Shown in pieces: positions 5,241 to 44,951 of a stretch of DNA of 64,000 bases (the stretch's first letter is position 1; each line of letters opens with the position of its first letter). The stretch is from Planctomycetota bacterium. Lineage in GTDB: Bacteria > Planctomycetota > UBA11346. The DNA is taken from the NCBI GenBank assembly GCA_038213805.1, contig JBBQSO010000002.1, forward strand, positions 64,001-128,000, written 5' to 3'. A model generated the notes under the pieces. That model did no database searches. It was not told where the DNA came from and was given only the letters and a program-made list of their open reading frames with translations. A program made the position numbers and the translations under genes.

Positions 5241-5256
5241 TCCCTTCGTGGCGGGA

Positions 5257-5720: not shown

Positions 5721-5762
5721 CTCATTTCCCCCTTCCCCGTCCCCGCTCTCCACCGGACGCCC

Positions 5763-9434: not shown

Positions 9435-9483
9435 GCCTGGGTCACCGCCTGCCGCACGCCGCACCCTCCGCCGGATCCAGCCG

Positions 9484-10179: not shown

Positions 10180-10192
10180 AGCGGGGCTGGAC

Positions 10193-11128: not shown

Positions 11129-11153
11129 AGCCCACGCACCGAGCGGAGCACCC

Positions 11154-11954: not shown

Positions 11955-11965
11955 TACCGCGCTCT

Positions 11966-12020
11966 CCCGCTTCTCGCTTCTCGCTACTCGTGACTCGTGA
12001 CTCGCTACTCGTGACTCGAA
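11966..12020. repeat. Heptamer array CTCG(CTT/CTA/TGA), about 8 units
   Basis: Fills most of the ureAB-ureC spacer. Confidence 0.9.
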
Positions 12021-12042
12021 ATTCCACCCGGACCCGACCCCC

Positions 12043-13758
<1,716 letters not shown>

Positions 13759-13765
13759 ACCTCCG

Positions 13766-14545: not shown

Positions 14546-14658
14546 CGTGCGCCGCGCTTCCGCCTGCCATTGCAATGAATGCTCTGCCCGGATGATCCGC
14601 GCCATCCCGCGTCCGCCGCGTCCGCTTCGCCCATCCCTGCCGCCGGAGAGCCCAGCCG

Positions 14659-15849: not shown

Positions 15850-15877
15850 TCCCGACCGCCCGCCGCCAGGACCCGCC

Positions 15878-16627
15878 ATGATGACCACCCCCAGCTCCGA
15901 CCACGACCACGGCCACGGCCACCACCACGGCCCTGGCGGCCACACCCATGAGCATCTGGACCACGCCGGCCGCTTCCACGAACGTGAACAGCCGCTGGCG
16001 CGCGATTTCAGCGAGCGCGCCTTCACCGTCGGCATCGGCGGCCCGGTCGGCAGCGGCAAGACCGCGCTGATGCTGCAGCTGTGCCGGCGCCTGCGCACGA
16101 CCATGAACATCGCTGCGGTGACCAACGACATCTTCACCAAGGAGGACGGCGAGTTCCTGATCCGCAACGAGGCCCTCGAAGCCGGCCGCATCCGCGCCGT
16201 CGAGACCGGCGGCTGCCCGCACGCCGCGATCCGCGAGGACATCACCGCCAACCTGATGGCGCTCGAGGAGCTGCATGGCCTTTATCAGCCGCAGCTGCTG
16301 CTCATCGAGTCGGGCGGCGACAACCTCGCCGCAAACTACAGCCGCGAGCTGGCCGACTACATCATCTACGTCATCGACGTCGCCGGCGGCGACAAGGTGC
16401 CGCGCAAAGGCGGGCCCGGCATCACCCAGTCCGACCTCTTCATCATCAATAAGACCGACCTCGCCACCGCCGTCGGAGCCGATCTCGCCGTCATGGAGCG
16501 CGATACCGTGAAGATGCGCGGCGGCGGACCCTACGTCTTCGCCCAGGTCAAGCAGGGCGTGGGCGTCGAGGACATCGTGGACCATATCGTGCATGCGTGG
16601 CAGCATGCGACGGGGATCGCGCATTGA
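15878..16627 (+). CDS. ureG: Urease accessory GTPase UreG with His-rich N-terminus
   Basis: [41 protein letters not shown]-terminal [19 protein letters not shown]. Confidence 0.97.
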
Positions 16628-27192: not shown

Positions 27193-28131
27193 TCAAACGG
27201 TGGCGAGGCGCTGGGCGGTCAGCACGAGGAACACCGGGAACTCCTTGGCGGCGCGGTCCTCGGCACCGAAGCGCGGGCCCTTGGTGCCGCGGCGGTGGCT
27301 GCATAGCTCTTCGCAGGCGATGACCCCGAGCCCGGCCTGGCCGCAGGCATTGAGGTAGGCCTGCAGCGGGCGGTGGAAGCTGGTCGTGCGACTGGCGTCC
27401 TGGGGCTTCCCGGGATGGGTGCGGATGGGCAGCGCCGTCGGTGACAGGTAGCCGTCGAGGCGGCGGTACTGGATGCCGTTGGCCTCGTCGAAGCCCCACG
27501 AGGTGCGGCGCGGGATGCGGAACGCGGGATGGGTCATGACCATGACCGCGCGTCCGCCCGGCTTGAGCAGCGCCGCGACGCCGCCCAGCACCGGCTGGAT
27601 GGGATCGAGGTCCTGCAGCGCCATGACCAGCGCGGCATGATCAAAGCGCGGGCCCTTGACGGTCGCGGCGAGATCGCGCGCGTCGCCCAGCAGGTAGGTC
27701 TCCTGCGCCTGGGCGCGACTGGTCGCGGCCGCGACCAGCGTCGGACTGGCGTCTACGCCGACGGTCAGGACGCCGCGCCCGGCGAGCACGCGCCCGAGCA
27801 CGCCCTGGCCGCTGCACACATCGAGCACGCGCTGCCCCGGTGTGGCGGCGAGCTGGCGCAGCACCGCGGGCAGGATCAGCTCGGTGTAGAAGTCGTCGCC
27901 ACCGGCGCCAAGCAGCTGGTCGTACCAGCCGGCCTGAGCCTCCCAGGCGGTCTCGGCGGCGGGCGGGGTCGGGGCGCGGGCGGGTGCCTGCGGGATCTGG
28001 TCGCGGCGCGCATCGCGGCCGCGGTCATCTGCGCGCGCGGGCCGGGCGTCGGCGGGCCCCGTCGCGCCGGCCGCATCGCGCCGCCGTGGCCGGGGGGCAT
28101 AGTCGCGCTTGGGGAAACGATCGCCGGTCAT
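27193..28131 (-). CDS. Class I SAM-dependent methyltransferase
   Basis: RVLDVCSGQG, GVDAS, LLKPGGR; start moved to ATG 28131. Confidence 0.88.
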   Translation of the reverse strand: MTGDRFPKRDYAPRPRRRDAAGATGPADARPARADDRGRDARRDQIPQAPARAPTPPAAETAWEAQAGWYDQLLGAGGDDFYTELILPAVLRQLAATPGQRVLDVCSGQGVLGRVLAGRGVLTVGVDASPTLVAAATSRAQAQETYLLGDARDLAATVKGPRFDHAALVMALQDLDPIQPVLGGVAALLKPGGRAVMVMTHPAFRIPRRTSWGFDEANGIQYRRLDGYLSPTALPIRTHPGKPQDASRTTSFHRPLQAYLNACGQAGLGVIACEELCSHRRGTKGPRFGAEDRAAKEFPVFLVLTAQRLATV

Positions 28132-28220
28132 GCCTGCAGCATGCCCCCCGCCAGGGCTCGCACAATCGCCCGGCACGGCACCGGACGCAGCCGCACCCGC
28201 CGTGCGCTGTGCGCTGTGCG

Positions 28221-29711
28221 TCAGGAAATGCGCTCCGCCCGCGACGACTGCAGCAACGCGTCCGCCGCGTGCGCCTGCAGCCACGCGCGCCGCAGCAGCA
28301 GCGCGCCCCCGGCGATCAACGCACCCATGATCGCGGCTTCACGCAGCCCCAGCGGCACCTGCGGGTAGTAGGCGGTCTCGTCCAGGCCGGCGACGGAGAA
28401 GGTGTAGTTGTCCTGGAAGCGGTAGGCGCCGGGCGCCGCGTACCAGGCGGCGGTGGTCACCTGGCCCGGATAGAGCGGATCTTCCGGATCATTCTGAAGC
28501 GGCCGGCAGAAGTCCTTGGTGGTGATCAGGCAGAGCAGGCCGCTGACGACCACCGCGAGCGTCGCGTAGGTCAGCCCACGCTGCGGCCAGCGGCGCGCGA
28601 TCGTCACCGCCAGCGGCGGCAGGCCGACACCGGCGAGCATGATGAAGGCGACATGGTAGCGCAGCGGCGACCACCAGGTGCACTTGAATGCCAGCCACAG
28701 GCACTCCTGCGCGGCCAGGGCCGCAAGCACCGCCAGGGCGACGCGCCGCCACGCGCAGGTCGGGGTGCGGCCGCAGGCGACCAGGGCGGCGATGGCGCAG
28801 GGCAGCCACGGCACGCCCAGCACGACGATCGCGAGACCGCGCAGATTGTGCGGCAGCGAGGCGAGGGTCAGGGCGTTGCAGCCGTCGTCGTAATAGGTGT
28901 AGCCGGAGACCAGCGGGCCGCCGAAGCGGTGCCAATTCATCGCCAGAACCCCCGCCATGGGCAGCGCGGCCGCGCCAAGCAGCAATCCGGCCGCGCGCCA
29001 GCCGGCGCGGCTCCCGCGCCACAGCACCCAGGCCGCGCCGGCGCTCAACACACCCATCCCCGGGGCATTCGCGTTGTGGCACATCGCTGCCATGCCGAAG
29101 GCGAACCCCGCCAACAAGGCCAGACGCAGCGGCGTGCGCCCGTCGGCCAGGGCCAGTGCAACCGCCCACAGGCCGAGCAGCGCGAGCAGGCCCACCACCG
29201 GCTCGACGTAGAACAGGCGGCTATAATAGAGGCCCGAGCCGCTGAGCACGAGCACTAGGCCGCCCCACGTCCCGGCGCTGCGCGGCAGGCGCAGCGCACG
29301 GGCGATGCCGGCCAGCGCCACCGCCGCGCCCGCGGTCGCCAGGGGCGACATCAGCGCCATCAGCCAGCGATGGTGAAAGGCGCCGCCGCTCAGCCATTCC
29401 AGACCGGCTCCGAGCAGCACGAAAGGACCACTGAGGATGGGCAGGCCGATCGAAAAGCGGCTGTAGACCTCGCCGCGCGGGCCGAGGTGCTCCAGGCGCA
29501 TGTCCCAGCGCCCGTCCAGCCACAGCGACTCCGCGTCCTGCGCGTACTCGTAGAGATCGTAGACGCCGAATGGGCCGACGAACCACGCCAGCAGCACCAG
29601 CAGCGTGCCGGCGAAAAGCAGCACGTCGCTGCGCCACGGCGCTGGCGCCCCCGGCAGCGCCAAGACCACGGGCCCAGGCGCCAGGGACGCGGAAGGTGGC
29701 CCGGCGCTCAT
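28221..29711 (-). CDS. Polytopic membrane protein, probable GT-C fold glycosyltransferase
   Basis: Many TM segments, acidic loop after TM1 (YDLYEY), YSRLFYVEP, NWHRFGGPLVSGY; ATGA overlap with the GT2 stop. Confidence 0.6.
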   Translation of the reverse strand: MSAGPPSASLAPGPVVLALPGAPAPWRSDVLLFAGTLLVLLAWFVGPFGVYDLYEYAQDAESLWLDGRWDMRLEHLGPRGEVYSRFSIGLPILSGPFVLLGAGLEWLSGGAFHHRWLMALMSPLATAGAAVALAGIARALRLPRSAGTWGGLVLVLSGSGLYYSRLFYVEPVVGLLALLGLWAVALALADGRTPLRLALLAGFAFGMAAMCHNANAPGMGVLSAGAAWVLWRGSRAGWRAAGLLLGAAALPMAGVLAMNWHRFGGPLVSGYTYYDDGCNALTLASLPHNLRGLAIVVLGVPWLPCAIAALVACGRTPTCAWRRVALAVLAALAAQECLWLAFKCTWWSPLRYHVAFIMLAGVGLPPLAVTIARRWPQRGLTYATLAVVVSGLLCLITTKDFCRPLQNDPEDPLYPGQVTTAAWYAAPGAYRFQDNYTFSVAGLDETAYYPQVPLGLREAAIMGALIAGGALLLRRAWLQAHAADALLQSSRAERIS

Positions 29712-31150
29712 CGCATCGCCAACCGGCGCGCCGCGAACCACGCCATGCGCAGCAGGATCAGGCCGTGGCGCCAGCGCTGGATGTTGGTCTCGCCATAGAC
29801 CCGCGCGTGGTAGCGCACCGGCACGTCGACCATGCGCAGGTTGAGCTTGGCGGCGCCCAGGATCAGGTCGAAGTCGCCGAAGGGGTCGAAGTCGCCGAAG
29901 AAGGCGCGGCCGGCCTCCAGGCGCAGGTAGTCGGCGCGCGCCAGGGCCTTGGTGCCGCACAGCGTGTCGCCCAGGCGCTGGCCAAGGATCATCGACAGCA
30001 CCGCCGCGAAGAACTTGTTGCCGAGCAAGTTGAAGAAGCGCATCGCGCTGGGCGCGAGCGGGTAGACCAGGCGCACGCCGTTGACGTACTCGCCGCGGCC
30101 GGAGCGCAGCGCCTCGTGGAAGGAGGCAAGGTCCTCGGGCGCCACCGCCATGTCGGCGTCGAGGATCATCAGCAGGTCGCCGGTCGCGGCGGCGAAGCCG
30201 CAACGCACCGCGTCGGCCTTGCCGCGGCCGCTATGGCGCAGCAGCTTCATGCTGCGCTCCGGGTGCTCGGCGATGCAGCGCGCGATCTCCTCGGCGGTGC
30301 CGTCGCTGCTGCCGCCCTCGACGAAGATCAGTTCGGTGCCGGCGCCCATCTCGGGCACGCGCGCGACGATGTCGCGGATGGTGCCGGCCTCATTGCGCGC
30401 CGGCACGATGACGCTGACGCGCTGCGGCGGACGCGGCGTGGCCTGCGGGCGGGCGACGAAGACCTGGGCGATGCCCAGGCCGCGCAGCGGCCACCAGCGG
30501 CCAAGCACGCGGTTGACCAGCGGGGCGAGCAGCGGGATGCCCAGCGGCAGCGGCATTTCGCGCCAGTCGCGCACCACCTCGAAGCCCGACAGGTAGAGCA
30601 GGTTGCGGACATCGCCCGCGGACAGCCAGTTCTGCGCCAGCATCGGCCGCGCCAGGCCGAGGCGGCGCGCGCAGGCCAGCGGCACCTGCCACAGGCGGTT
30701 GAAGCAGGTGATGATCAGGCGCGTGCCGGGATGGCAGTGCGGCTGCAGCCGGCGCAGCACGGTCTCGACGTTCCACAGGTCATCGACCAGGTCGGAAAGC
30801 ACGATGTAGTCGAAGGTGCCGGTCAGCGGCGGATCGTGGGCATCTGCCTGGATGAATTCGAGCTGCGGGTGACGGATACGAGCCTGATCGAGGGCCACCG
30901 CGCTCACATCCAGGCCGACGCCGCGCCGCGGCTTGAGCGCGGCCAGCAGGTCGCCGGTGCCGCAGCCGACCTCCAGCACGGCCATGTCCGGCGGCACCAG
31001 GAACCCATGCAAGGCCTGGAGCTGCCGGTGATAATAACCGCCGAGCGTCCACCGCGGCTTGGCCGCGACGTGGTCCCAATGTTGGACCCGCGTCCGCCGA
31101 TGGTCGGCGCGCAGGCGCTGCGTACCGGTTTCCGTGTCGGACAGCAGCAT
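29708..31150 (-). CDS. Bifunctional SAM methyltransferase / GT2 glycosyltransferase
   Basis: VLEVGCGTGD; VSVIVPARNEAG, FVEGGSSDGT, ILDAD, DTLCGTK, DPFGDFDL; start ATG 31150. Confidence 0.9.
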   Translation of the reverse strand: MLLSDTETGTQRLRADHRRTRVQHWDHVAAKPRWTLGGYYHRQLQALHGFLVPPDMAVLEVGCGTGDLLAALKPRRGVGLDVSAVALDQARIRHPQLEFIQADAHDPPLTGTFDYIVLSDLVDDLWNVETVLRRLQPHCHPGTRLIITCFNRLWQVPLACARRLGLARPMLAQNWLSAGDVRNLLYLSGFEVVRDWREMPLPLGIPLLAPLVNRVLGRWWPLRGLGIAQVFVARPQATPRPPQRVSVIVPARNEAGTIRDIVARVPEMGAGTELIFVEGGSSDGTAEEIARCIAEHPERSMKLLRHSGRGKADAVRCGFAAATGDLLMILDADMAVAPEDLASFHEALRSGRGEYVNGVRLVYPLAPSAMRFFNLLGNKFFAAVLSMILGQRLGDTLCGTKALARADYLRLEAGRAFFGDFDPFGDFDLILGAAKLNLRMVDVPVRYHARVYGETNIQRWRHGLILLRMAWFAARRLAMR

Positions 31151-31305
31151 CCCGTCAGCATACCCCGGCATCCGGCATCCCGCACGACCCGGGCGGGTCG
31201 GTAGTGGCACCTGGCGATCCTTGCGGATTGCGGAACTCCCCGTCTCAGGCCATGGATTGCAAGCCGCCACCCCCTTCCCACCATGACCAGCACTAGGCAG
31301 AGCCC

Positions 31306-32316
31306 ATGGACGGTCCCACATTCCTGCTCTTTTACGCCGCGATCGCCGCGGTCCTCCTTGGCCTGTGCCGCTGGCGCAACCGCGCCGCGCCGCCGCGCCT
31401 GACGCCGCTGCGCGAGTTGCCGGCCGACCCGGAACCCTACGAGGTGGCCTGGCTGCGCGGTGGCGGGGCAGAGATCGTGCGCCTGGCGGTTTTCGACCTG
31501 ATGCGCTGCAGCTACCTGGCGATCGAGAAGGCCGGCTCCGCGAGCGGCGGGACGCGCCGCATCGCGCGCATCGCCGAACCCTCGCCCGAGGCCGCGATCT
31601 CGCCCTTCGCGCGCATGACCTGGGCGGCCTGCGCCGTGCCCATGCCGGCCTGGAAGCTGCTGCAAGGCACTCTGCCCAAGCGCATCGATGAACGCTGCCG
31701 GGCTTTGCGCACGCGCTTCGAGGAGCAGGGCCTGGTGATCCGGCCGGCGCTGCGCTTCCAAGGCATTCTCATGACCCTTGCTGCCGTGGCGGCCCTGCTC
31801 GTCCTCGGCTTCTGGCGCATCGAGCGTTCGCTCGCTTCCGGGCACCACAACCTTGGCTTCCTGGCGGCGCTGATGGCGATCAGCATCGTGGTGGCGCTGC
31901 GGGCCACCCTGCCGCCCGCGCGGCTGACCAGCCATGGGCGCGCCTACCTGGCTGGACTGGTGGCGGGCAGGCCGGATGCGCGGACGGCGTCGCCCGCACG
32001 CGCGCCCGCAGCGGCCGCTACGCGCTCAGCGCATGCCGCGGACGCGGAGCCGCTCGCCGCCGGGATGCCGATGGCGCCCGCCCTGCTCGGCGTCGCGCTG
32101 CTCGGCTTCCCGGCACTGGCCGGAACAAATTACGCGGTGATGGGCGAGCTCTTCCCACGCGCCCAGGCGCCAGGCAACGGCTCGTCGTGCAGCAGCGGTT
32201 CGTCCTGTGGCAGCAGTTCCTCCTGCGGCAGCAGCAACTCTGGCGGGGATAGCGGCGGTGGCAGCGACGGCGGCAGCAGCGGCTGCGGCGGAGGCTGCGG
32301 TGGCGGTGGCGACTGA
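31306..32316 (+). CDS. TIGR04222-type membrane protein with Cys/Ser/Gly low-complexity tail
   Basis: MDGPTFLLFY, PYEVAWLRGG, LGFL, RLTSHGRAYL, VALLG; tail SSCSSGSSCGSSSSCG...GCGGGCGGGGD. Confidence 0.85.
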   Translation: MDGPTFLLFYAAIAAVLLGLCRWRNRAAPPRLTPLRELPADPEPYEVAWLRGGGAEIVRLAVFDLMRCSYLAIEKAGSASGGTRRIARIAEPSPEAAISPFARMTWAACAVPMPAWKLLQGTLPKRIDERCRALRTRFEEQGLVIRPALRFQGILMTLAAVAALLVLGFWRIERSLASGHHNLGFLAALMAISIVVALRATLPPARLTSHGRAYLAGLVAGRPDARTASPARAPAAAATRSAHAADAEPLAAGMPMAPALLGVALLGFPALAGTNYAVMGELFPRAQAPGNGSSCSSGSSCGSSSSCGSSNSGGDSGGGSDGGSSGCGGGCGGGGD

Positions 32317-33142
32317 GTCGACGGCGCTGCTCGGCGCCGGCCTCGGCTGGCGCACACCTCTCGCGTCCGGCATCCTGCAGCAGCGCGCGCGCATCGACGT
32401 CATCGAGATCGTCGCCGACCACTTCCTTGACGCCGCGGGCGAGACGCTGGCGGAGCTCGACCTGCTGCGCGCGCACTTCACCGTCATCCCGCATGCACTC
32501 GATCTGTCATTGGGCAGCGCCGACGGCGTCGACGGCGCGTATCTCGACAAACTCGCCGCGCTGATCGAGCGCCTGGATCCGCCGTGGTGGAGCGAGCACC
32601 TTGCCTTCACACGCGCCGGCGGAATGCGCATCGGCCATCTCATGCCCCTGCCGCGGACGCGCGCCGCGGTCGCGGTGGTGGGGCGCAACGTCGCGCAGGT
32701 GGCCCGTACCATCCGCACGCCGCTGCTGCTCGAGAACAGCGCCGCGCAGTTCACCCTGCCAGGTGGACTTGATGAGGCGGAGTTCCTTGGCGCGGTGGTC
32801 GACGCGACCGGCTGTGGCCTGCTGCTCGACCTCGCCAACCTGCACGCCGATGCGGTCAACCACGGCGGCGATGCGCGCACGCTGCTCGCGCGCCTGCCGC
32901 TGGAGCGCGTCGTGCAGCTCCACCTCGCCGGTGGCGACCTCGATCGCGGCATGCTGGTCGACAGCCACGCCAGCGCGGTCGCGCCCGCGGTCTGGGCGCT
33001 GGCCGCGGACGTGCTGGCGCACGCCCCGGTGCGCGCGGCGATCCTCGAACGCGATGCGCGCTTCGCCGGCATCGGCCCGCTGCTCGATGAGCTTGACCTG
33101 CTGCGCGCGCGCTGGCCGGCCCTGCAGGCCGCGCGCGCATGA
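32300..33142 (+). CDS. DUF692 multinuclear non-heme iron oxidative enzyme (MNIO; MbnB/TglH/ChrH family)
   Basis: GLGWR, EIVADHF, PHALDLSLGS, WSEHLAF, LLLEN, LLLDLANL, LHLAGG, VDSH, ILERD; GTG start 32300 or 32306 after GGAGG. Confidence 0.93.
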   Translation: MAVATESTALLGAGLGWRTPLASGILQQRARIDVIEIVADHFLDAAGETLAELDLLRAHFTVIPHALDLSLGSADGVDGAYLDKLAALIERLDPPWWSEHLAFTRAGGMRIGHLMPLPRTRAAVAVVGRNVAQVARTIRTPLLLENSAAQFTLPGGLDEAEFLGAVVDATGCGLLLDLANLHADAVNHGGDARTLLARLPLERVVQLHLAGGDLDRGMLVDSHASAVAPAVWALAADVLAHAPVRAAILERDARFAGIGPLLDELDLLRARWPALQAARA

Positions 33143-33738
33143 GCGCTGCCGAGCCCGACCTGGCCGCACTGCAGGCGCAGCTGGCGCGCGCGCTGGTCGA
33201 TCCGGCCGCGCTTGCCGCGCTCACCGCGCGCCCGCCGGCGTGGCTGGCCGGCGATCCCGCGCGAGTGCGTGGGATCGCATTCGCCGCGCGCTCGCTGGTC
33301 GCCAAACGCCGCGCCGAAGCGTTGCCGTTGCTCGGCGCGGTCGCTGCGGCGCTGGGGCCGCCGCTGCGCGCGCGCTTCGAGGCCTTCGCTGCGACCCATG
33401 CGCCCGCCGCCGGCCAGCCGCGCAGCGATGCCCTGCGCTTGCTCGCCACGCTCGTCACCGATCCGACCTTGCCCGCGTGGCTGCGCGCGCTGGCGCGCTG
33501 GCAGGCCGGTCTGGTGGCGGCCGCACGGCCCGGCCCGTTCCTGCGCCTGGAGCACTTCGCCTGGCGCGTCGACCGCCAGCGCGGCGCGGACCCGCCCGAC
33601 CCAGGCGTGTTGATCGCGGCGTGGTGGCGCTGGTCGCGGCGCGGCCGGCTCCATCATGTCCGCCTCATGCCCCCCCGCCGCCGCCTGCCGCCGTCCGATC
33701 TGGATCCCCTCAACCTGCCGCGCGGAACCCGCCCATGA
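33139..33738 (+). CDS. Putative MNIO partner protein
   Basis: ATGA overlap with DUF692 stop; LQAQLARALVD, SLVAKRRAEA, LRARFEAFA helical N-domain resembling DUF692-adjacent partners. Confidence 0.65.
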   Translation: MSAAEPDLAALQAQLARALVDPAALAALTARPPAWLAGDPARVRGIAFAARSLVAKRRAEALPLLGAVAAALGPPLRARFEAFAATHAPAAGQPRSDALRLLATLVTDPTLPAWLRALARWQAGLVAAARPGPFLRLEHFAWRVDRQRGADPPDPGVLIAAWWRWSRRGRLHHVRLMPPRRRLPPSDLDPLNLPRGTRP

Positions 33739-34073
33739 GCTGGCCGCTGCTCATCATCATCGGCAGCCAGCTGCTGTTCACCCTCAGTGATCTCATTGCC
33801 CGCATCCACATGAAGTCAGGCGGCTTCACTGTCGCCAACTTCATGACGATGTGGTTCGCCGGATACATGCTGATCCGCCTGGTCGCCACCGTCGGCCAGC
33901 TCTACATCTTCGCGAGCATCGACCTTGGCAAGAGCATGGCGCTGTTCGGGGCCGCCTCGATCGTGCTCGCCAACCTGCTCGGCTTCCTGGTGCTCAAGGA
34001 GGTGCTGTCGCCGACCGTGTACGTGGCGGTCTCGATGGTGGTCGTCGCGTTCATGATCCTCGCCTGGCGCTAG
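33735..34073 (+). CDS. Small four-TM membrane protein (SMR/DMT-like)
   Basis: 112 aa, four hydrophobic helices, LLGFLVLKEVLS; ATGA overlap with the previous stop. Confidence 0.7.
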   Translation: MSWPLLIIIGSQLLFTLSDLIARIHMKSGGFTVANFMTMWFAGYMLIRLVATVGQLYIFASIDLGKSMALFGAASIVLANLLGFLVLKEVLSPTVYVAVSMVVVAFMILAWR

Positions 34074-34136
34074 TTCGCCGAAGCGTGGCCTCAGCAGCAT
34101 GCGGCCGTGTGCGCAGACGTTCCCCCGACTCGCGGC

Positions 34137-35306
34137 TCAATACGCGGTGATCGACGGATCGATCTGCTCGCCCCACGCCAGGATGCCGCCCTCCAGGTTC
34201 AGCACCTTGGTGAAGCCGTGCTTCTGCAGGGTCTCGAGGGCCTTCATGCTGCGCCGCCCCGACTTGCACTGGGCGACGATGAGCTTGTCCTTCCACGCGG
34301 CGAGCTCGCCGAGGCGCGCCGGCAGCTGGCCGAGCGGAATGTTGAGGTTGCCGTCGATCTGGCAGACGCCCAGCTCGGACGGCTCGCGCACGTCGAGCAG
34401 CAGGTGCTCGGTGCCGGCCTCGCGCAGTTCGGAATAATCGCCGACCGAGATCTCGAGTCCACTCATGCCGCTGTCGCTTTCTCCGCGTTTCAGGCCGCAG
34501 AATTCCTGGTAATCGATGAGCTGGGTGATGGTCGGATTCCGCCCGCACACCGGGCACGTCGGATCGGGCCGCAGCTTGAGCTCGCGGAAGGTCATGTTCA
34601 ATGCGTCGTAGCGCAGGAAGCGCCCGGCCAGGGTGCGGCCCATGCCGGTCAGCACCTTGATCGCCTCGGTGGCCTGGATCATGGCGATGCTGCCGGGCAG
34701 CACGCCCAGCACGCCGCCCTCGCTGCACGACGGCACCTCGCCGGGCGGCGGCGGTTCGGGGTACAGGAAGCGGTAGCACGGCCCGTTGCGGGTGCCGTCC
34801 GGCTGCTTGCGCACGTCGAAGACCGTGGCCTGGCCTTCGAAGCGGTAGATCGACCCGTAGATGTTCACCTTGTCGAGGAACACGCAGGCGTCGTTGACCA
34901 GGTAGCGGGTCGGAAAGTTGTCGGTGCCGTCGATGACGATGTCGTACTTGGCGATGATCTCGAGCGCGTTGCCGGAGTTGATCCCCTCCTCATAGACCTC
35001 GACGACGACGTCGGGATTGAGGTCGTTGATGCCGCGCTTGGCACTCTGCGCCTTACTGGTGCCGACGTCCTGGGTGCGGTGGATGATCTGGCGCTGCAGG
35101 TTCGAGACGTCGACCGCGTCGAAGTCCATGATGCCGATGCGCCCGACCCCGGCCGCGGCCAGGTAGAGGGCAAGGGGCGAACCCAGGCCGCCGGCGCCAA
35201 TCAACAGCACCGCCGACTTCAGCAGCTTCTCCTGGCCCATCTCGCCGAACTCGGGCAGGGTCAGGTGGCGGGCATAGCGCAGGTACTGGTCGCGTTTCAG
35301 CGGCAT
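34137..35306 (-). CDS. moeB: MoeB/MoeZ ThiF-family adenylyltransferase with rhodanese domain
   Basis: RYARHL, GAGGLG, SNLQRQ, DGTDNFPTRY, SCSEGGVLG; rhodanese LLDVRE, CKSGRRS. Confidence 0.93.
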   Translation of the reverse strand: MPLKRDQYLRYARHLTLPEFGEMGQEKLLKSAVLLIGAGGLGSPLALYLAAAGVGRIGIMDFDAVDVSNLQRQIIHRTQDVGTSKAQSAKRGINDLNPDVVVEVYEEGINSGNALEIIAKYDIVIDGTDNFPTRYLVNDACVFLDKVNIYGSIYRFEGQATVFDVRKQPDGTRNGPCYRFLYPEPPPPGEVPSCSEGGVLGVLPGSIAMIQATEAIKVLTGMGRTLAGRFLRYDALNMTFRELKLRPDPTCPVCGRNPTITQLIDYQEFCGLKRGESDSGMSGLEISVGDYSELREAGTEHLLLDVREPSELGVCQIDGNLNIPLGQLPARLGELAAWKDKLIVAQCKSGRRSMKALETLQKHGFTKVLNLEGGILAWGEQIDPSITAY

Positions 35307-36171: not shown

Positions 36172-37116
36172 ATGCCTGTCGTGACCAGCCGCTCCGCCTC
36201 CATCCTGCGCCGGGCCCTGCCCTGCGCCCTGCTGCTGCTTGCGGTGGTGCCCCTGGCCTCGGCCGGCGAGGACGGCGGTTTCTCGCTGTGGCGGCTGTTC
36301 GGGCGCCTGCACGTGCTGGTGGTGCACTTCCCCGTCGCCCTGCTGCTGGTCGCCGCCCTGGTCGAGGTGGTGCAGTGGAAGCGCCGCGAGGTGTCGGAGA
36401 CCACCCTATGGTTCGTGATCGTGGGCGCGATCAGCGCGGTCGGCGCCGCGGCGATGGGCTGGGCCAACGGTGATGAGCACCATGACGGCGGCCTCGACCT
36501 GCTGCTGCACCGCTGGCTGGGCGTCGCCACCGCGGTGCTGTCCTGCGTGACCGCCGGTATCGCCCTGCGCCTGCGCACCGCCGATTTCGGGGTGATGCCG
36601 CGCCGCGTGTTCCGCGTCCTGCTCTTCACCACGTCGATGGTGGTGGGCGCGACCGGCCACTTCGGCGGCAACCTGGTGCACGGCTCCGACTACGTGACGT
36701 CGGCCCTGCCGGCCTGGGCGAAGGCGCTGATGCCGACCGTGGCGGAACGCCACAGCGATCCGGCGACCGCACCGGGAACCCTAGCGGTCGACCCCGCCGC
36801 CCTGAACGGCCCCGTCGATTTCACCCGCGACATCGAGCCGATCTTCAAGAAGTCCTGCTATGAGTGCCACAACGACAAGGAGCAGAAGGGGAAGCTGCGC
36901 ATGGACAGCCGCGAGGCCCTGCTCAAGGGCGGCGAGAACGGCCCCGGCTTCGAACTCGGCAACGGCGACAAGAGCGCGATCATCCAGCGCATCCGCGGCG
37001 AGGGCGACGACCCGCGCATGCCGAAGAAGAAGCCGCCGCTGAATGCCGATCAGACCGAGGTGATCAAGCGCTGGATCGATCAGGGAGCGGTGTGGGCGAA
37101 GGCCAAGGACGGCTGA
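36172..37116 (+). CDS. DUF2231-like membrane domain fused to planctomycete-type cytochrome c
   Basis: GRLHVLVVHFPVALL, HRWLG, TGHFGGNLVHG; VDFTRDIEPIF, CYECH, RMP, WIDQGA. Confidence 0.88.
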   Translation: MPVVTSRSASILRRALPCALLLLAVVPLASAGEDGGFSLWRLFGRLHVLVVHFPVALLLVAALVEVVQWKRREVSETTLWFVIVGAISAVGAAAMGWANGDEHHDGGLDLLLHRWLGVATAVLSCVTAGIALRLRTADFGVMPRRVFRVLLFTTSMVVGATGHFGGNLVHGSDYVTSALPAWAKALMPTVAERHSDPATAPGTLAVDPAALNGPVDFTRDIEPIFKKSCYECHNDKEQKGKLRMDSREALLKGGENGPGFELGNGDKSAIIQRIRGEGDDPRMPKKKPPLNADQTEVIKRWIDQGAVWAKAKDG

Positions 37117-37311
37117 TGGCTGATGGCTGATGGCTGATGGCTGATGGCTGATGGCTGATGGCTGATGGCTGATGGCTGATGGCTGATGGCTGACGACCGG
37201 CGCGGGGCGCCGGTCGTCTATTCGTACCTGGCTGGTCGCAGCGCTGATGCTGCAGTACGTCGATGGGCAGAACGCGGCCGCTGTCAGCTGCCAGCTGACA
37301 GCCGTCAGCCA
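37111..37311. repeat. (GGCTGAT)x11 plus partial, with degenerate inverted partner
   Basis: Perfect array 37111-37193; GCTGTCA GCTGCCA GCTGACA GCCGTCA at 37280-37311. Confidence 0.95.
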
Positions 37312-37373
37312 GAAGGATCCCTGCCACCCGGCCACGCACATTGCGCTCCTGGATCCGCTCCGACCATCCAGCA

Positions 37374-38510
37374 ATGCTGATCCCCTGGGCCACCGATGCT
37401 CCGGTCTATCACCGTCCGTGGGGCACCATCGGGCTGATCATCGCCAACATCCTGATCTTCGCCTGGGAGCTCCACGCCGATCCTGAGACCATCGCGGATC
37501 TGGTCCTGCGCTTCGGCGATGGCTATCATCCGGTGCAGTGGCTGACCAACCACTTCCTGCACGCCGACATCATGCACCTGCTCGGCAATATGGTGTTCCT
37601 GTGGGTCTTCGGCCTGATCGTCGAGGGCAAGCTCGGCTGGCGGCGCTTCCTGCCGCTCTATCTCGGCATCTGCCTGCTCGACTCGGTGATCGTGCAGAGC
37701 GCGATGCTCGGCGCCGACGAGGGCGGCGCGCTCGGCGCGTCGGGCGCGATCTTCGCGCTGATGCTCATCAGCCTGGTGTGGGCGCCGGCGAACGAGATCA
37801 GCTGCCTGCTGTTCATCTGGATCGTGCCCAAGACCTTCGACGCACCGGTGTGGGTGATCTGCACGCTCTTCCTGCTGTGGAACGTGCTGATGGCCGCGCT
37901 CGACTCCTTCACCATGGGCACCGCCATGCTGCACCTCAGCGGTGCGCTGGTCGGGGCCGGCGCGGGCGTGCTGGCGGTGCGCAGGACATGGGTGGACTGC
38001 GAGGGCTGGGACGTGTTCTCGCGCGTGGCGAACTGGCGCGGCAAGGCGCCGCCGCGGGCAGCCGTGCGCAGCGTCGACGAGTCGACCGTGAAGCACGACC
38101 TGGCCGAACGCCGCGCCCAGGCCCAGGCGCTGATCCGCGAGTACGTCGTCAGCGGCGAAGGCGCCCTGGCCTTGCGCGTGCTGCGTGAGGCGACCCTCGC
38201 GACCGGCCGCTGGGGGCTCGAGCGTTCTGATCTGCTCGGCCTGATCGACGCGCTGATCGCCGAGCGCGCCTTCACCGAGGTGCGGCCGCTGCTCGCCGAG
38301 GCGCTGCAGCGCTTCCCTGACGCCGCGCCCGGCCTGCGCCTGCACGAGGCGCGCATGCTGCTCGACCTGCGCCGCCCGGCCAAGGCCCTTGAGCTGCTCG
38401 ACGCGCTGGAACCCGACGCCCTCGACGCGCACCAACAGGGCGAACGCGAGCGCCTGCGCGGCGCCGCACGCACGCTGATCGCCGCGGGCGTCCTCGAGAT
38501 CGACGATTGA
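37374..38510 (+). CDS. Rhomboid intramembrane serine protease with helical C-terminal domain
   Basis: FLHADIMHLLGNM, GASG, LHLSG. Confidence 0.9.
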   Translation: MLIPWATDAPVYHRPWGTIGLIIANILIFAWELHADPETIADLVLRFGDGYHPVQWLTNHFLHADIMHLLGNMVFLWVFGLIVEGKLGWRRFLPLYLGICLLDSVIVQSAMLGADEGGALGASGAIFALMLISLVWAPANEISCLLFIWIVPKTFDAPVWVICTLFLLWNVLMAALDSFTMGTAMLHLSGALVGAGAGVLAVRRTWVDCEGWDVFSRVANWRGKAPPRAAVRSVDESTVKHDLAERRAQAQALIREYVVSGEGALALRVLREATLATGRWGLERSDLLGLIDALIAERAFTEVRPLLAEALQRFPDAAPGLRLHEARMLLDLRRPAKALELLDALEPDALDAHQQGERERLRGAARTLIAAGVLEIDD

Positions 38511-40699: not shown

Positions 40700-43600
40700 T
40701 CACTCCTCGAAGCGCAGCCAGTTCAGATTGAACAACCCACCACCCTGACCCTTGAAGACCAGGTAGAGGTCGTGCACGCCGCCCGGATCCTTGACCGCGC
40801 CCTGGACCTCGGCCCACTTCTGCCAGTCGCCGGTGGGCTTGACCTCGGCGCTGCCGATGAGATCGCCCTCGGGCTTGTCGAGGTGCACCTCGATGGTGCC
40901 GCCGCTGCCCGCGGAGGCGACGCGGAACGTCATCTTGGTGGTGCCATCCAGGCCGATGTCCGCGAACTTCATCCAGTCGCCGTTGTCGATGAAGCCGATA
41001 CTCTTGCCACCGCCGGAGTCCTTGGTGTCCTCGGTCTGCACGCCGTGCTGGTCGCTGAACGACGAGGCGCGCACCATGCGGTTGCGCAGCACCACGGTGG
41101 TGCGCACGGTGTTGCTCGGGATCTCCTTGCCGTCAGCGGTCTTGACCTTGCGATCGGTGTAGGTCGCGGTCAGCAGGTAGATGCCGGTGTCGTCCTTGGG
41201 CTTCGGCACCACGGTAAAGGCGCCGCTGGCGCCCGCCAGCTCGGGCGGGGTCTCGGCCAGGGAGAGGATCCAACCGACCATTTCCGAGACCACCTCCTTG
41301 CTGTGCTGCGGGTGCGCGGCCATGGCGATCGGTCCCCACACCCCGCCGCCGCCGGTGATGATCTTCTGGGCGAGCTTCTCGACGATGCCCTTCTCGTCGT
41401 GGTATTTCGCGGCGATCATGGTGAAGGCCGGCCCGACCGACTGCACCGCCGGCTGGTGGCAGGCCATGCAGTCGCTGGCCAGGATGAGCTGCCGCCCCTT
41501 GACCGAGCCACCCATCATCGACTGCTCGAAGCCGACCAGGTCCTTGGGTTCGGCGCCGATGATGTACTGGGCGCTGAACTTGACGCGCGTGCTGATCTTG
41601 CCATCGGCGGTGCTGCCGTCCTCGGCGTCGGTCACGTCGATCTGGTAGCTCAGATTCTTGCCCCACGAGAAGAAGCCGCCGCCCTTCGGCGCGGTGATGG
41701 CGATGGTCGGCACGGCGTTGCCGACGGTGATCGGCACTACCGCGATCGCCGACTTGCCGCCCTGGTCGGTGACCGTGAGCTTGGCCTGGTAGAGGCCGGG
41801 CTTGGCGAAGGTGAAGGTCGGGTTGGGCTCGCTCGACTCGACCGCGTCGCCGGTGAAGCGCCACTCGTACTTCAGCACGTCGCCGTCATCCTTGTCGTAG
41901 GTGCCGGTACTGGTGAATTTCACCGCCAGCGGCTCCTTGCCGGCGGTCACATCGCTGCCCGCCTTGGCGACCGGCGCGCGATTTCCCGCGATGTAGTCGA
42001 TGCGGATGACCTGCGAGTCCTTGGTGTCCCACCACTGGGTGCCCCACAGGATCACGTACAGCGAGCCGTCAGGACCGAAGCGCATGTCCATCGGCTTCAT
42101 CCAGGTGAAGGTGGGCATGAAAGGCACCATGGTCTGCCGGGGATCGGCAGCGGTGGTGTCGAGGGTCTTGACCCAGTTGCGCATCCACTCGTAGAGGAAC
42201 AGCTTGCCGTCGTACCAGGCCGGGAATTGGGTGCCGTTCTTGAGCTTGGGATCGAAGTGGTAGACCGGGCCGGACATCGCGCAGCGGCCGCCCTCGCCGA
42301 GGTCCGGGAACTCCTCCGACTTCGAGTATGGGTACCACATCCACGCGGGCTGCGCGGGCGGCAGCTCATGGATGCCGGTGTTGACCGGCGAATCATTGAT
42401 CGGGTGGGCCGGGTCAAACTTGTCGCCGAGCTTCTTGGTAGCGAAGTCGTAGGCCGCGTACGGCTTGTTGTCGCCGACGAACAGCGGCCAGCCGAAGTAC
42501 CCGGCCTTGGTCGCGCGGTTGAATTCATCATGCCCCTTGGGGCCGCGCTCGCCGTCCTTGCCCGAGTCGGGACCGACCTCGCCCCAATAGAGGTAACCGG
42601 TGACGCTGTCGACCGCGTGGCGGAACGGGTTGCGGCAGCCCATCACGTAGATCTCAGGCCGGGTCTTGTCGGTGCCAGGCGGGAAGAGGTTGCCCTTCGG
42701 GATGGTGTAGGTGCCGTCCGCCTCGGGGTGGATGCGCAGGATCTTGCCGCGCAGGTCCATGGTGTTCGAGGCGCTGGCGCGCGCGTCCTTGCCGGGCTCG
42801 CGGTAGTCCATCGGCGAGAAGCCGTCGGACTCGAAGGGCGTGGTGTTGTCGCCGCACGACATGTACAGGTTGCCGCCGGGCCCGAAGCTCAGGCAGCCGC
42901 CGCAGTGGCCGACGATGGTGCGGACGTCCTTGACCACCAGCAGGGTCTTCTCGGTCGCGAGGTCGATGGTGTCGCCGCTGACGGTGAAGCGCGCGAGGTG
43001 CTCCTCCGCCGCCTCGCCGGGCATGGCGCGCAGGATGTACACCCAGTGGTTGGTCATGAAGTCGGGATCCAGGACGATGCCGATGCAGCCGTCCTCGGTG
43101 TTGCCCTTCTCGCCGCTGCGCAGCGAGTAGGTCGGCAGCTTGGCGACCTCGACCACCGCTTTGGTGTCCGGCTTGTAGCACGAGATCACGCCGAACTTGC
43201 CGCACCAGAAGACCCGGCCGTCGGCGGCGACGGACAGCTCCATCGGGAAGTCGGAGCCGCTCCCCAGCGAGGTGATCTCGAAGCGCGAATCGGACGGGCG
43301 CGCCTTGCCGAAATCGAGCGCCGGCCCTGCCGCCGCCCACTGCACGCCGCCGAGCAGGTGCTTGAGGTAGAGCGGTTCGGCGTAGCTCTCATCGGTGTGG
43401 CCCATCTCGGTGTAGAAGGCGCGGCCGCCCTCGTACTCGTGGTACCAGGCGAGCGGGTGCTCGGCGCCCATCTTGGTCGGGCCCGCGTCGTAGCTGGTCT
43501 CGTCGATCTTGAGCAGGATGTGGACGTCCTTGGGCAGCTGGCGGAAGTTGTACCACTCGTCGAAGCGCTCGAAGCTCGCGGGCATGCCGGCGGTCGACGG

Positions 43601-44110
43601 GTGGTTACCGTCGACGAGCACGACCTTGGCCTTCTGCTGCGCGGGGTGGCCAGCGAAGTAGGCGCCGGAGAGCTTGCCGTACCACGGCCAGTCGTACTCG
43701 GTGTCGGTCGCCGAGTGCACGCCGACATAGCCGCCGCCGGCCTGGATGTAGCGCGTGAAGGCCTCCTTCTGCCCGGCGTCGAGCACCGTGCCGGTGGTGC
43801 ACAGCCACATCACCACTTTGTAGTTCTTGAGGTTGGCCTCGGTGAACAGCGCGGCGTCCTCGGTGGCGTCGACGCCGAAGCCGTTCTCGGCGCCGAGCTT
43901 CTTCACCGCCTCGACGCCCTTGGCGATCGCCCCACCGTGGCGGAACCCGGCGGTCTTGGAGAAGACCAGCACCTTGTAGGCGTCCGCGGCGCCGGCGAGT
44001 CCAGCGAGCGCGAGCAGCAGCGCGAGCGCCAGGACGCGCGTCAGCACAGCAGGGACGGCAGGGACGGAAAGTCGGACGCGGTCGGTGCAGGACTTGGTGA
44101 AAATGCGCAT
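40700..44110 (-). CDS. Secreted ThuA + glucose/sorbosone dehydrogenase-like propeller + PKD + cytochrome c + CBM6-like protein
   Basis: LVFSKTAGFRH; GHCGGCLSFG, LRGKILRI, GCRNPFR; NPTFTFAKPGLY; CMACH...MAAH; GFIDNGDW, NLNWLRF. Confidence 0.9.
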   Translation of the reverse strand: MRIFTKSCTDRVRLSVPAVPAVLTRVLALALLLALAGLAGAADAYKVLVFSKTAGFRHGGAIAKGVEAVKKLGAENGFGVDATEDAALFTEANLKNYKVVMWLCTTGTVLDAGQKEAFTRYIQAGGGYVGVHSATDTEYDWPWYGKLSGAYFAGHPAQQKAKVVLVDGNHPSTAGMPASFERFDEWYNFRQLPKDVHILLKIDETSYDAGPTKMGAEHPLAWYHEYEGGRAFYTEMGHTDESYAEPLYLKHLLGGVQWAAAGPALDFGKARPSDSRFEITSLGSGSDFPMELSVAADGRVFWCGKFGVISCYKPDTKAVVEVAKLPTYSLRSGEKGNTEDGCIGIVLDPDFMTNHWVYILRAMPGEAAEEHLARFTVSGDTIDLATEKTLLVVKDVRTIVGHCGGCLSFGPGGNLYMSCGDNTTPFESDGFSPMDYREPGKDARASASNTMDLRGKILRIHPEADGTYTIPKGNLFPPGTDKTRPEIYVMGCRNPFRHAVDSVTGYLYWGEVGPDSGKDGERGPKGHDEFNRATKAGYFGWPLFVGDNKPYAAYDFATKKLGDKFDPAHPINDSPVNTGIHELPPAQPAWMWYPYSKSEEFPDLGEGGRCAMSGPVYHFDPKLKNGTQFPAWYDGKLFLYEWMRNWVKTLDTTAADPRQTMVPFMPTFTWMKPMDMRFGPDGSLYVILWGTQWWDTKDSQVIRIDYIAGNRAPVAKAGSDVTAGKEPLAVKFTSTGTYDKDDGDVLKYEWRFTGDAVESSEPNPTFTFAKPGLYQAKLTVTDQGGKSAIAVVPITVGNAVPTIAITAPKGGGFFSWGKNLSYQIDVTDAEDGSTADGKISTRVKFSAQYIIGAEPKDLVGFEQSMMGGSVKGRQLILASDCMACHQPAVQSVGPAFTMIAAKYHDEKGIVEKLAQKIITGGGGVWGPIAMAAHPQHSKEVVSEMVGWILSLAETPPELAGASGAFTVVPKPKDDTGIYLLTATYTDRKVKTADGKEIPSNTVRTTVVLRNRMVRASSFSDQHGVQTEDTKDSGGGKSIGFIDNGDWMKFADIGLDGTTKMTFRVASAGSGGTIEVHLDKPEGDLIGSAEVKPTGDWQKWAEVQGAVKDPGGVHDLYLVFKGQGGGLFNLNWLRFEE

Positions 44111-44174
44111 GTGCTGAGGAACCTCGGGAAGGCGGAAAGGTGTGGGAGTGGTGGAATGGCGCGCGCGGGCAGCG

Positions 44175-44951
44175 TCACTTCTTGGTGGGCAGCTTGCGGC
44201 CGGCGGCGTACTCGATGCCGCCGAGGAGCTGCTGCAGATACAGGGGCTCGGCATAGCTCTCGTCGGTGTGGCCCATCTCGATGTAGAATGCGCGGCCGCC
44301 GTCGTAGTCGTGGTACCACTCGATGGGATGCTCGCCACCCATCGCCCCGCCCTGGTAGGTGCTCTCGTCGAGCTTGGCGAGAATGTGCAGGTCGGTGCCG
44401 AGCGACTTGAAGTTGTACCACTCGTCCTTGCGCTCGATGGCGTCCGGGATTCCTGCGGTGGCGGGGTGGTTGTGATCGACCACGCGCACGGTGGCCTTCT
44501 GCGGCGCGGGGTGGCCGGCGAAGTAGGCGCCCACCAGCTTGCCGTACCACGCCCACTCATACTCGGTGTCAGTCGCCGAGTGGACGCCGACGAAGCCGTT
44601 GCCGGCCTGGATGAAGGCGGTGAAGGCCTTGCGCTGGTCGTCGTCCAGGATGTGGCCGGTGGTGTTGAGGAACATCACCGCCTGGTACTTCTTCAAGGTC
44701 TCGGCCGTGAACAGCGCGGCGTCCTCGCTGGCGTCAACGGCGAAGCCGTGCTCCCCGCCGAGCTTCGTGACCGCGGCGGTGCCGGCCGCGATCGAGCCAT
44801 GGCGGAAACCGGCGGTTTTCGAGAACACCAGCAGGTTGAAGGGCTTGTCCGCAGTGTCGGCCGCATTGGCGACGCCGCCGCAGGCGAGCAGCAGGACGGT
44901 GGCCACGGGCGCCAGGCGGCGCAGGGTGGACGGGAGGCGGGTGCTGGTCAT
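44175..44951 (-). CDS. Secreted ThuA-like (class I glutamine amidotransferase fold) protein
   Basis: LVFSKTAGFRHGSI, FLNTTG, GVHSATDTEY, DEWYNF, GGRAFY, MGH. Confidence 0.9.
   Translation of the reverse strand: MTSTRLPSTLRRLAPVATVLLLACGGVANAADTADKPFNLLVFSKTAGFRHGSIAAGTAAVTKLGGEHGFAVDASEDAALFTAETLKKYQAVMFLNTTGHILDDDQRKAFTAFIQAGNGFVGVHSATDTEYEWAWYGKLVGAYFAGHPAPQKATVRVVDHNHPATAGIPDAIERKDEWYNFKSLGTDLHILAKLDESTYQGGAMGGEHPIEWYHDYDGGRAFYIEMGHTDESYAEPLYLQQLLGGIEYAAGRKLPTKK

Follow-up and report, generated by a model that had tools for sequence, protein, structure and literature searches.

The subject of this analysis is a gene cassette in 64,000 nucleotides of DNA from a Planctomycetota bacterium (GenBank assembly GCA_038213805.1, contig JBBQSO010000002.1, positions 64,001 to 128,000 of the forward strand; this whole stretch is called the window). 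Four open reading frames (ORFs) on the + strand, at window positions 31306-34073, overlap at their ends as translationally coupled genes and are here called A, B, C and D. They encode a TIGR04222 membrane protein that ends in a Cys-rich tail, a multinuclear non-haem iron oxidative enzyme (MNIO), a putative partner of that enzyme and a small protein with four transmembrane (TM) segments. Judged by its sequence, the cassette is a further example of a predicted TIGR04222-MNIO kind, and on evidence of association we lean towards the view that the tail of the gene A product is modified by the products of genes B and C. This reading is supported by the synteny of genes A, B and C with their tight junctions, by the fold of the partner, by Cys-rich tails in all 120 of the homologues listed and by the lack of any other precursor in the window.

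The idea that such a tail serves as the substrate is not new, having already been proposed by Antoine et al. (Microb Genom 2025; PMC12452194). In their survey about 40% of more than 1,000 Cys-containing proteins that lack a signal peptide and are encoded before MNIO genes belonged to TIGR04222, and the Cys tail of these proteins was proposed in silico as an MNIO substrate, the modification of which, in the wording of that paper, "remains to be investigated". As far as their account goes, the TIGR04222 clusters contain no DUF2063 genes, at least 10% of them encode PME-type 2 partners, and the linked MNIOs are close to the bufferin and oxazolin enzymes. Since the prediction has already been published, what the window contributes is a further example and anatomical detail and not a new concept; the added detail comprises a partner that is constant in the clade, the charge pattern of the tail, a repeat-encoded tail and an optional SMR-like gene. 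A literature search found no experimental study of an MNIO with a transmembrane or membrane-anchored substrate, which agrees with the statement in the preliminary description of this DNA that no biochemical characterisation of such an arrangement was known.

Layout of the cassette

The four overlap-joined genes of the preliminary description are all present (Table 1). The ORF of gene B first opens at GTG 32207; because the match to the Pfam profile begins only at ORF residue 43, the true start is probably either GTG 32300, which has GGAGG 5 nt upstream, or GTG 32306. Gene A stops with TGA at 32314-32316 and so overlaps the start of gene B by 17 or 11 nt respectively, while the starts of genes C and D each form an ATGA overlap with the stop of the preceding gene. 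Genes A to D have a G+C fraction at third codon positions (GC3) of 0.86-0.94, as real genes should show in a window of approximately 70% GC. The cassette is flanked upstream by a divergent methyltransferase-GT2 gene at 29708-31321 (-) and downstream by a convergent MoeB/ThiF-rhodanese gene at 34137-35306 (-). No promoter or terminator site was found when 30900-34400 was scanned, a result that is uninformative because the consensus used is of the E. coli type and may not suit the host.

Table 1. Positions of the cassette genes and of two parts of gene A within the window.
Feature	Position	Strand	Description or basis
Gene A	31306-32316	+	TIGR04222 membrane protein, 336 aa
Gene B	32300..33142	+	MNIO (DUF692) enzyme, 278-280 aa, start GTG 32300 or 32306
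Gene C	33139-33738	+	Putative MNIO partner protein, 199 aa, DUF2063-like fold without Pfam signature
Gene D	33735-34073	+	112-aa four-TM protein, SMR/EamA (DMT) type
Gene A, fourth hydrophobic segment (residues 251-272) and juxtamembrane stretch (273-287, ..AGTNYAVMGELFPRA..)	32056..32166	+	Hydropathy, conservation
Gene A, Cys/Gly/Ser-rich tail (residues 288-336), putative MNIO substrate core	32167..32313	+	Composition

The membrane protein and its tail

The match of gene A to the NCBIfam model TIGR04222 scores 75.9 bits (cut-off 43; E 3.5e-21) and spans 2-224 of the 229 profile positions, and the family assignment for which a hidden Markov model (HMM) search had been proposed is thereby upheld. 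Hydropathy places four hydrophobic segments at approximately residues 4-21, 152-170, 184-200 and 251-272, and residues 22-150 form a conserved soluble domain. The N-terminus consists of a TM segment followed by RWRNR and by inspection carries no cleavable signal. The last 49 residues are Gly, Ser, Cys and Asp only, ending in CGGGCGGGGD, and they include exactly the five Cys residues that had been claimed for the tail (295, 301, 307, 327 and 331), all within the last 42 residues. Part of this tail is encoded by repetitive DNA, namely an 18-bp tandem repeat at 32173-32232 (3.3 copies) and a period-3 GGC/GCG run at 32252-32311. The protein thus has the sequence features of the TIGR04222 subset proposed as MNIO substrates: a C-proximal Cys-rich Ser/Gly segment, a gene placed directly before that of an MNIO and, by inspection, no Sec signal.

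A homologue search with gene A returned 775 proteins at E<=1e-3, and among the matches listed 120 of 120 have Cys-rich tails. Tail statistics were drawn from 128 tails, these 120 together with eight locus-linked and window proteins; in this set the last 60 residues contain 3-9 Cys (median 6), and the last 45 residues are 40% Gly, 29% Ser and 13% Cys. The residue after a Cys is Gly 620 times and Ser 150 times, the commonest spacings between Cys are 3, 4, 5 and 2 residues, and 1-7 residues follow the last Cys. Ahead of the tail, the fourth segment has a family-averaged hydropathy core at residues 258-268, with G267, L271 and F283 nearly invariant in the family alignment, and a stretch of the form ..AGT.Y......F.R.. 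is kept between this segment and the first tail Cys, as seen in the locus-linked homologues. Residues 251-272 and 273-287 are therefore set apart in Table 1 as a candidate signal-anchor and a candidate recognition element directly before the Cys-rich core.

The region between the second and third TM segments of TIGR04222 proteins resembles Pfam DUF2207_C (40.3 bits against a cut-off of 33 in the homologue P0102, E 0.036 in gene A of the window), which hints that TIGR04222 proteins may share a membrane core with the DUF2207/YciQ family. A search of the Atlas with residues 1-250 of the gene A product returned unnamed clusters only.

The MNIO and its partner protein

Gene B matches Pfam PF05114 (MbnB_TglH_ChrH, formerly DUF692) over positions 1-259 of 263, with 253.8 bits against a cut-off of 25 (E 2.1e-75), which settles the second HMM search that had been suggested. 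Alignments were also obtained with 3BWW, a DUF692 protein of solved structure (E 2.6e-31), with TglH (8HCI/8HI7; E 3.6e-20) and with MbnB structures (7DZ9). All seven motifs that the preliminary description had related to iron binding (PHAL, SEHL, LEN, DLAN, HLAG, DSH and ERD) are found, and the residues H63, H98, E143, D175, N178, H206, D219, H221 and E248, numbered from the start at 32306, are invariant in nine of nine aligned MNIOs. The iron ligands of MbnB have been described as His54, His90, Glu133, Asp163, Asn166, His192, Asp208, His210 and Glu239 (PMC9060507). By motif and by alignment to 3BWW, 8HCI and 7DZ9 the nine positions of gene B match this set, including the D-x-x-N and D-x-H spacings. 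Gene B thus encodes an MNIO with all nine iron-ligand positions, which would be expected to modify a peptide or protein with iron and O2. The best NCBIfam model for gene B is BufB (NF050167), at 215.1 bits and below the equivalog cut-off of 310; the protein is also below the cut-offs of HvfB, ApyH, ChrH and MbnB, the last (TIGR04159) giving 40.8 bits against a cut-off of 325.

Gene C proved harder to place. It has no NCBIfam match and no Pfam match at E<=0.01, and a limit of E<=10 gave only DUF2694 (E 0.05). A word-index search found 4 close proteins only, and when 1.84 billion representatives were searched exhaustively with a profile, 33 relatives came up at E<=1e-3; the family is small and divergent. 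A first AF2 model from the 4 close sequences (pLDDT 52.3) was discarded in favour of one from a 32-sequence alignment, which reached a pLDDT of 90.3 and consists of a helical domain at residues 8-128 and a three-stranded sheet at 134-176. The description of this product as a 199-aa helical protein is therefore correct for the first of these domains and does not extend to the second. When this model was compared with the PDB by Foldseek, the best matches were TglI (8hci_A/8hi7_A; probability 1.00, TM 0.56) and NGO1945 (3dee; probability 1.00, TM 0.46), the next match having a probability of only 0.18. Antoine et al. apply the term PME-type 2 to proteins that are encoded after the MNIO, do not carry the DUF2063 signature and are related in structure to 3dee or 8hi7 (PMC12452194). 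The modelled gene C product corresponds exactly to this definition, and complex formation with the MNIO is putative. At the level of sequence, homology to DUF2063 partners is not demonstrable by the two comparisons made: a search of the PDB with the gene C profile returned only a short N-terminal motif like that of nitrile hydratase alpha (best E 9e-4), and hhalign of the profile against the single HvfC-like partner of a Verrucomicrobiae locus described below was not significant (E 0.055).

In a library protein of 458 aa (P0016), an MNIO domain (residues 2-217) and a gene C-family region (284-455) share one chain and are joined by a linker of approximately 65 residues; as a single N-terminally truncated metagenomic ORF, P0016 may be a natural fusion or a read-through. 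A predicted complex of the gene B and gene C products with residues 245-336 of the gene A product scored 0.00 with an uncertain fold of the partner, and carries weight neither way. A tblastn search of plasmids with gene C found no match.

The first ~60 residues of the gene C family (window 33139-33330; ..LARLYTD..FR..F..DP......GL..) resemble the leader motif of nitrile-hydratase-alpha/NHLP proteins, as do the homologues P0017 and P0025 and the partners in the three methanotroph loci described in the next section. In P0017 the NHase_alpha model gives 27.7 bits against a cut-off of 27.2, with Frankia_peptide and NH_RiPP_Os17 below cut-off. A family of RiPP partner proteins thus has a motif in common with a family of RiPP leaders. 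A role for gene C as an NHLP-type precursor was considered and rejected, the protein having no Cys and a TglI/NGO1945 fold and the matches being mostly below cut-off.

Conservation of the A-B-C unit

A collection of species-representative genomes was scanned with patterns from gene B, giving at least 599 pattern matches and at least 9 confirmed loci. Seven of the loci listed have an MNIO at 47-86% identity to that of the window; they come from a Planctomycetota metagenome-assembled genome (MAG; L001, MNIO 86% identical), Chthonomonadaceae (L002, cut just upstream of the MNIO), Methylocystis sp. LW5 (L003), a bacterium (L004), Methylosinus sporium (L005), a Planctomycetia MAG (L006) and Methylocapsa aurea (L007). 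The hosts thus include Planctomycetota and three alphaproteobacterial methanotrophs. The remaining two are a Verrucomicrobiae locus (L008, with the next-nearest of the listed MNIOs, 29-32% identical) and a match of 64 residues only (L009). The survey of gene neighbourhoods, which had been proposed as a check, found a TIGR04222 gene above cut-off (58.8-119.1 bits) directly upstream of the MNIO in all six of the listed loci that retain upstream DNA. A gene of the gene C family lies directly downstream in all seven listed loci with an MNIO of at least 47% identity. A profile of this family, which includes some of the tested proteins (P0033, for example, is the protein of L006), gave eight matches among 717 ORFs, one in each cassette (L001-L007 and the window), and no match in L008 or L009. 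Junctions across the cassettes run from -13 to +5 nt between genes A and B and from -4 to -22 nt between B and C. The flanks vary by lineage, with MprF-like and SciP genes in the methanotrophs and GT2 and MoeB genes in the window and L001, and the difference indicates that A-B-C travels as a portable unit. The Verrucomicrobiae locus is a textbook bufferin operon, with a 92-aa BufA2-like precursor bearing a signal peptide, a BufB and a partner of the HvfC/DUF2063 type, and its classical precursor occupies the position of gene A.

Three further observations were made in these loci. In Methylocapsa aurea two tandem TIGR04222 genes (4041-4952 and 5160-5990; 70.5 and 67.8 bits), both with Cys in their tails, precede one MNIO gene, so that the enzyme pair may serve two membrane substrates. 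In each of the methanotroph loci a gene like HvfX (DoxX-type, copper-binding RiPP maturation, where RiPP denotes a ribosomally synthesised and post-translationally modified peptide) lies 3.3-4.3 kb upstream of the MNIO (2048-2551 in L003, 2198-2701 in L005 and 1241-1642 in L007); these matches are weak (38-45 bits against a cut-off of 80) and do not adjoin the cassette, which leaves the link uncertain. At 6813-7746 of L001, a nanopore-style MAG contig, the homologues of genes C and D are each split over two frames, probably by assembly indels rather than real decay.

Search for another precursor

The statement in the preliminary description that no free-standing precursor lies nearby stands for the 64-kb window. 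A listing of ORFs of at least 20 aa at 31000-34300 contained none. A second screen, covering the whole window, required a length of 30-160 aa, a hydrophobic N-terminus, four or more Cys and a GC3 of 0.8 or above; just 2 ORFs passed, one internal to gene A and the other a fragment of a GATase gene. Pfam annotation of the 47 other ORFs of the window, which comprise urea transport, urease, sugar ABC transport and housekeeping genes, revealed no second MNIO, DUF2282, DUF2063 or DoxX, and no MbnA, MbnC or BufA-like ORF was present in the window.

Topology of the tail

The topology of the gene A family was assessed from Lys and Arg (K+R) counts in an alignment of 82 sequences, a crude positive-inside count made with no trained predictor. 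On average 9.5 positive residues flank the membrane in loops 1 and 3, compared with 3.5 in the N-terminal tail, loop 2 and the residues that follow segment 4; the first set exceeds the second in 81 of 82 sequences, favouring an N-out/C-out arrangement. These counts place the 22-150 domain and loop 3 in the cytoplasm and the N-terminus and C-terminal tail outside. The tail is accordingly predicted to lie on the periplasmic side, provided that the fourth segment, the weakest of the four, truly spans the membrane, and a periplasmic tail is also predicted for TIGR04222 proteins by Antoine et al. (PMC12452194). The tail proper (~42 residues) has a mean of 0.16 K+R and 1.8 Asp and Glu, and its near lack of positive residues suits translocation. 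Neither the gene B nor the gene C product has a hydrophobic N-terminus, and both should therefore be cytoplasmic. With cytoplasmic enzymes and a periplasmic tail, modification of the tail would have to precede its passage through the membrane, unless segment 4 does not span it. The suggestion in the preliminary description that the tail is modified while membrane-tethered is thus doubtful. Bufferins, which are exported by Sec, are likewise assumed to be modified before crossing the membrane, according to Antoine et al. (PMC12452194).

Comparison with known systems

The cassette most resembles the TIGR04222-MNIO-PME-type 2 clusters of Antoine et al. (PMC12452194). As these are described, the gene order is the same, with a TIGR04222 protein that lacks a signal peptide and has a Ser/Gly/Cys end followed by a bufferin-like MNIO; the partner likewise combines the NGO1945/TglI fold with a lack of the DUF2063 signature, and for the tail, too, a periplasmic location is predicted. 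Unlike them, the cassette of the window adds a coupled SMR-like fourth gene. The partner is constant in the clade of the window (seven of seven listed loci), whereas the published figure is at least 10% of TIGR04222 clusters. Furthermore, the 22-150 domain appears cytoplasmic by charge, whereas large periplasmic domains are given in that account, which is at odds with a four-segment topology and a periplasmic tail.

Bufferin operons share with the cassette the order precursor, MNIO and partner (BufA1/BufA2, BufB and BufC, a DUF2063 protein), and BufB is the best NCBIfam match of gene B. They also share a Cys-rich core with small residues after Cys, a periplasm-bound substrate made beside cytoplasmic enzymes, and a four-TM protein in fourth position, gene D standing where DoxX often sits; DoxX is reported as a frequent neighbour in bufferin operons (PMC12452194). 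For Buf1 a thiooxazole and copper chelation have been reported (PMC12452194). Unlike in bufferin operons, gene B falls under the BufB cut-off, gene C has no DUF2063 signature, the fourth gene is SMR/EamA-like and not DoxX, and the candidate substrate, instead of being a small peptide exported by Sec, forms the tail of a polytopic membrane protein of 336 aa.

In each of the TglHI (pearlin/3-thiaglutamate) and MbnBC (methanobactin) systems, an MNIO forms a heterodimer with a partner, and the pair acts on Cys in a ribosomally made substrate. TglI is the closest solved fold to gene C, and the ligand motifs are kept in the alignments of gene B to TglH and MbnB. The differences are that gene C is only 13-14% identical to TglI, that the MbnB model gives gene B so low a score, and that the window has no free peptide like MbnA or TglA and no MbnC.

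Proposed maturation and alternative explanations

From the observed synteny and conservation of the tail we infer that A-B-C would be a self-contained MNIO maturation module whose substrate is a protein and not a free peptide. The gene B enzyme, with its DUF2063-like partner, would oxidatively convert the tail Cys of the gene A product to heterocyclic metal-binding groups; these would most likely be thiooxazoles, as in bufferins, because gene B is closest to BufB. The last ~90 residues of the gene A product, comprising the fourth hydrophobic segment and the tail, would leave the ribosome last and would be modified in the cytoplasm, after which the fourth segment would insert as an uncleaved signal-anchor and take the tail, modified and poor in charge, across with it. 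The outcome would be a chelator, probably of copper, that is anchored in the membrane and faces the periplasm. Thiooxazole chemistry and copper as the metal are each held with less confidence than modification of the tail itself.

A more specific form of this proposal, unlikely to hold in all its parts together, is that the fourth segment is an uncleaved signal-anchor fused to a RiPP-like core, that the 22-150 domain and the juxtamembrane motif recruit the MNIO-partner complex, and that heterocyclisation of the Cys precedes the flipping of the tail across the membrane. This would yield a tethered-chalkophore copper 'brush' of thiooxazole (or oxazolone/thioamide) groups, permanently anchored in the membrane and facing the periplasm. 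If this were true, the conservation in methanotrophs would hint at copper hand-over or buffering near membrane enzymes such as particulate methane monooxygenase.

Several points weigh against modification of the tail by genes B and C. The evidence for it is one of association. In the account of Antoine et al. (PMC12452194), no MNIO gene occurs in 490 of 1372 complete genomes that have TIGR04222 genes, C-proximal Cys are missing from more than a quarter of the TIGR04222 proteins, and the TIGR04222 gene follows the MNIO in more than 10% of cases; taken together these figures imply that the TIGR04222 family overall is not MNIO-dependent. The present work rests on a small sample of 9 loci, retrieved by patterns that came from the MNIO of the window alone. 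Since gene B scores below the equivalog cut-offs of BufB, HvfB and MbnB, the chemistry of those enzymes does not appear transferable to it with confidence. The topology evidence is a crude count, and the fourth segment has 11 window centres above threshold compared with 14-15 for the others. By charge analysis the enzymes and the final location of the tail would be on opposite sides of the membrane, and modification before translocation is thus an extra assumption. Lastly, the genes that flank the cassette in the window include none for the homeostasis of copper or another metal.

The alternative that survives best, itself unlikely, is that the tail is not a substrate of the MNIO. The gene A product would then be a membrane scaffold, a sensor or transporter-like, its tail working through free thiols or disulfides in a metallothionein-like or redox manner, and genes B and C would act elsewhere, on a peptide encoded at another site or on one yet unrecognised. 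The loose published association, with its MNIO-free genomes and Cys-free members (PMC12452194), agrees with this explanation, as does the combination of a tail predicted to be periplasmic with enzymes that have no export signals. The weak similarity to DUF2207_C, moreover, suggests that the N-terminal body of the gene A product has a function of its own. It is countered by the place of the TIGR04222 gene, which stands at the precursor position with coupled junctions in every listed locus where this could be seen, by the joint movement of the three genes into unrelated contexts, by the retention of tail Cys throughout the listed homologues and by the lack of an alternative precursor within 64 kb.

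A second alternative keeps modification of the tail and changes its fate. The gene A product would be an oversized precursor whose body acts as leader and export device, and the modified tail would be freed by a cut behind the fourth segment, as a soluble RiPP that is periplasmic or secreted. An R-rich loop, a hydrophobic stretch and small residues before the core do give the layout of a Sec signal, as in bufferin precursors (PMC12452194), and in the window protein and its close relatives A-L-A|G follows directly after the fourth segment; but the A-x-A-like site is not conserved, methanotroph homologues having E-A-L-K-G, and a signal-peptidase site after the fourth TM segment was rejected as a feature of the family. 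A rhomboid protease gene lies 3.3 kb downstream (37341-38510), but convergent and unrelated genes separate it from the cassette, and no protease gene is part of the cassette or recurs in the listed loci. Release of the tail is less probable than an unmodified tail.

Least probable of all is that gene D defines the function, either by pumping a small exported product through its SMR-like protein or as a flippase for lipid-linked sugars (presumably akin to ArnE/F) working with the glycosyltransferase genes upstream, an explanation to which the ATGA coupling to gene C, the SMR/EamA-like features and the methyltransferase-GT2 fusion and 660-aa membrane protein just upstream on the other strand lend something, but which is at variance with the occurrence of gene D in only two of eight cassettes and with its scores below every curated family cut-off.

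If modification of the gene A tail by genes B and C is real, MNIO enzymes would act on an integral membrane protein, and RiPP-type chemistry would extend from diffusible peptides to fixed metal sites at the membrane surface. It would also raise the question of how a cytoplasmic maturase handles a segment bound for the other side of the membrane. With three core genes in 2.4 kb, no tailoring genes and relatives in cultivated methanotrophs, the cassette is a convenient test case.

Gene D and the surroundings of the cassette

Gene D was counted as a member of the cassette in the preliminary description. It is indeed coupled to gene C, but it is not conserved, being found among the listed loci only in the window and L001; such a distribution means that it cannot be essential to the conserved function of A-B-C, and by this comparison it is an accessory, lineage-specific addition. 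Hydropathy gives its product four TM segments. The EamA model of Pfam gives it 11.9 bits (cut-off 28.2; E 0.28), and no curated family cut-off is reached. It has 55 homologues of approximately 112 aa, some of them named EmrE-like by JGI, and an Atlas feature score of 0.97 to EamA/Multi_Drug_Res clusters, while a sequence search of the PDB returned nothing meaningful.

The genes divergent from the cassette, at 27193-31321 (-), include a methyltransferase (27193-28284), a 660-aa polytopic membrane protein with no Pfam match at 1e-5 (28221-30203) and the methyltransferase-GT2 fusion already mentioned. Together with the SMR-like gene D they recall lipid-linked sugar transfer systems.

Elsewhere in the window, the region 3789-16627 encodes a urea ABC transporter (a binding protein, two permeases and two ATPases) followed by ureD, ureAB (fused gamma/beta), ureC, ureF and ureG of urease; an acyltransferase_3 gene interrupts this series between ureF and ureG. 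A 1286-aa ThuA-GSDH-PKD-CBM6 protein is encoded at 40700-44560, and a PSCyt1 (Planctomycete cytochrome C)/DUF2231 protein at 36172-37116. With the 86% identity of the MNIO to that of a Planctomycetota MAG (L001), these two proteins indicate that the window derives from a planctomycete. At the end of the PSCyt1/DUF2231 gene begins a perfect heptanucleotide tandem repeat (GGCTGAT, 11.9 copies, 100% match; 37111-37193), which runs into the spacer before the rhomboid gene and could be prone to slippage.

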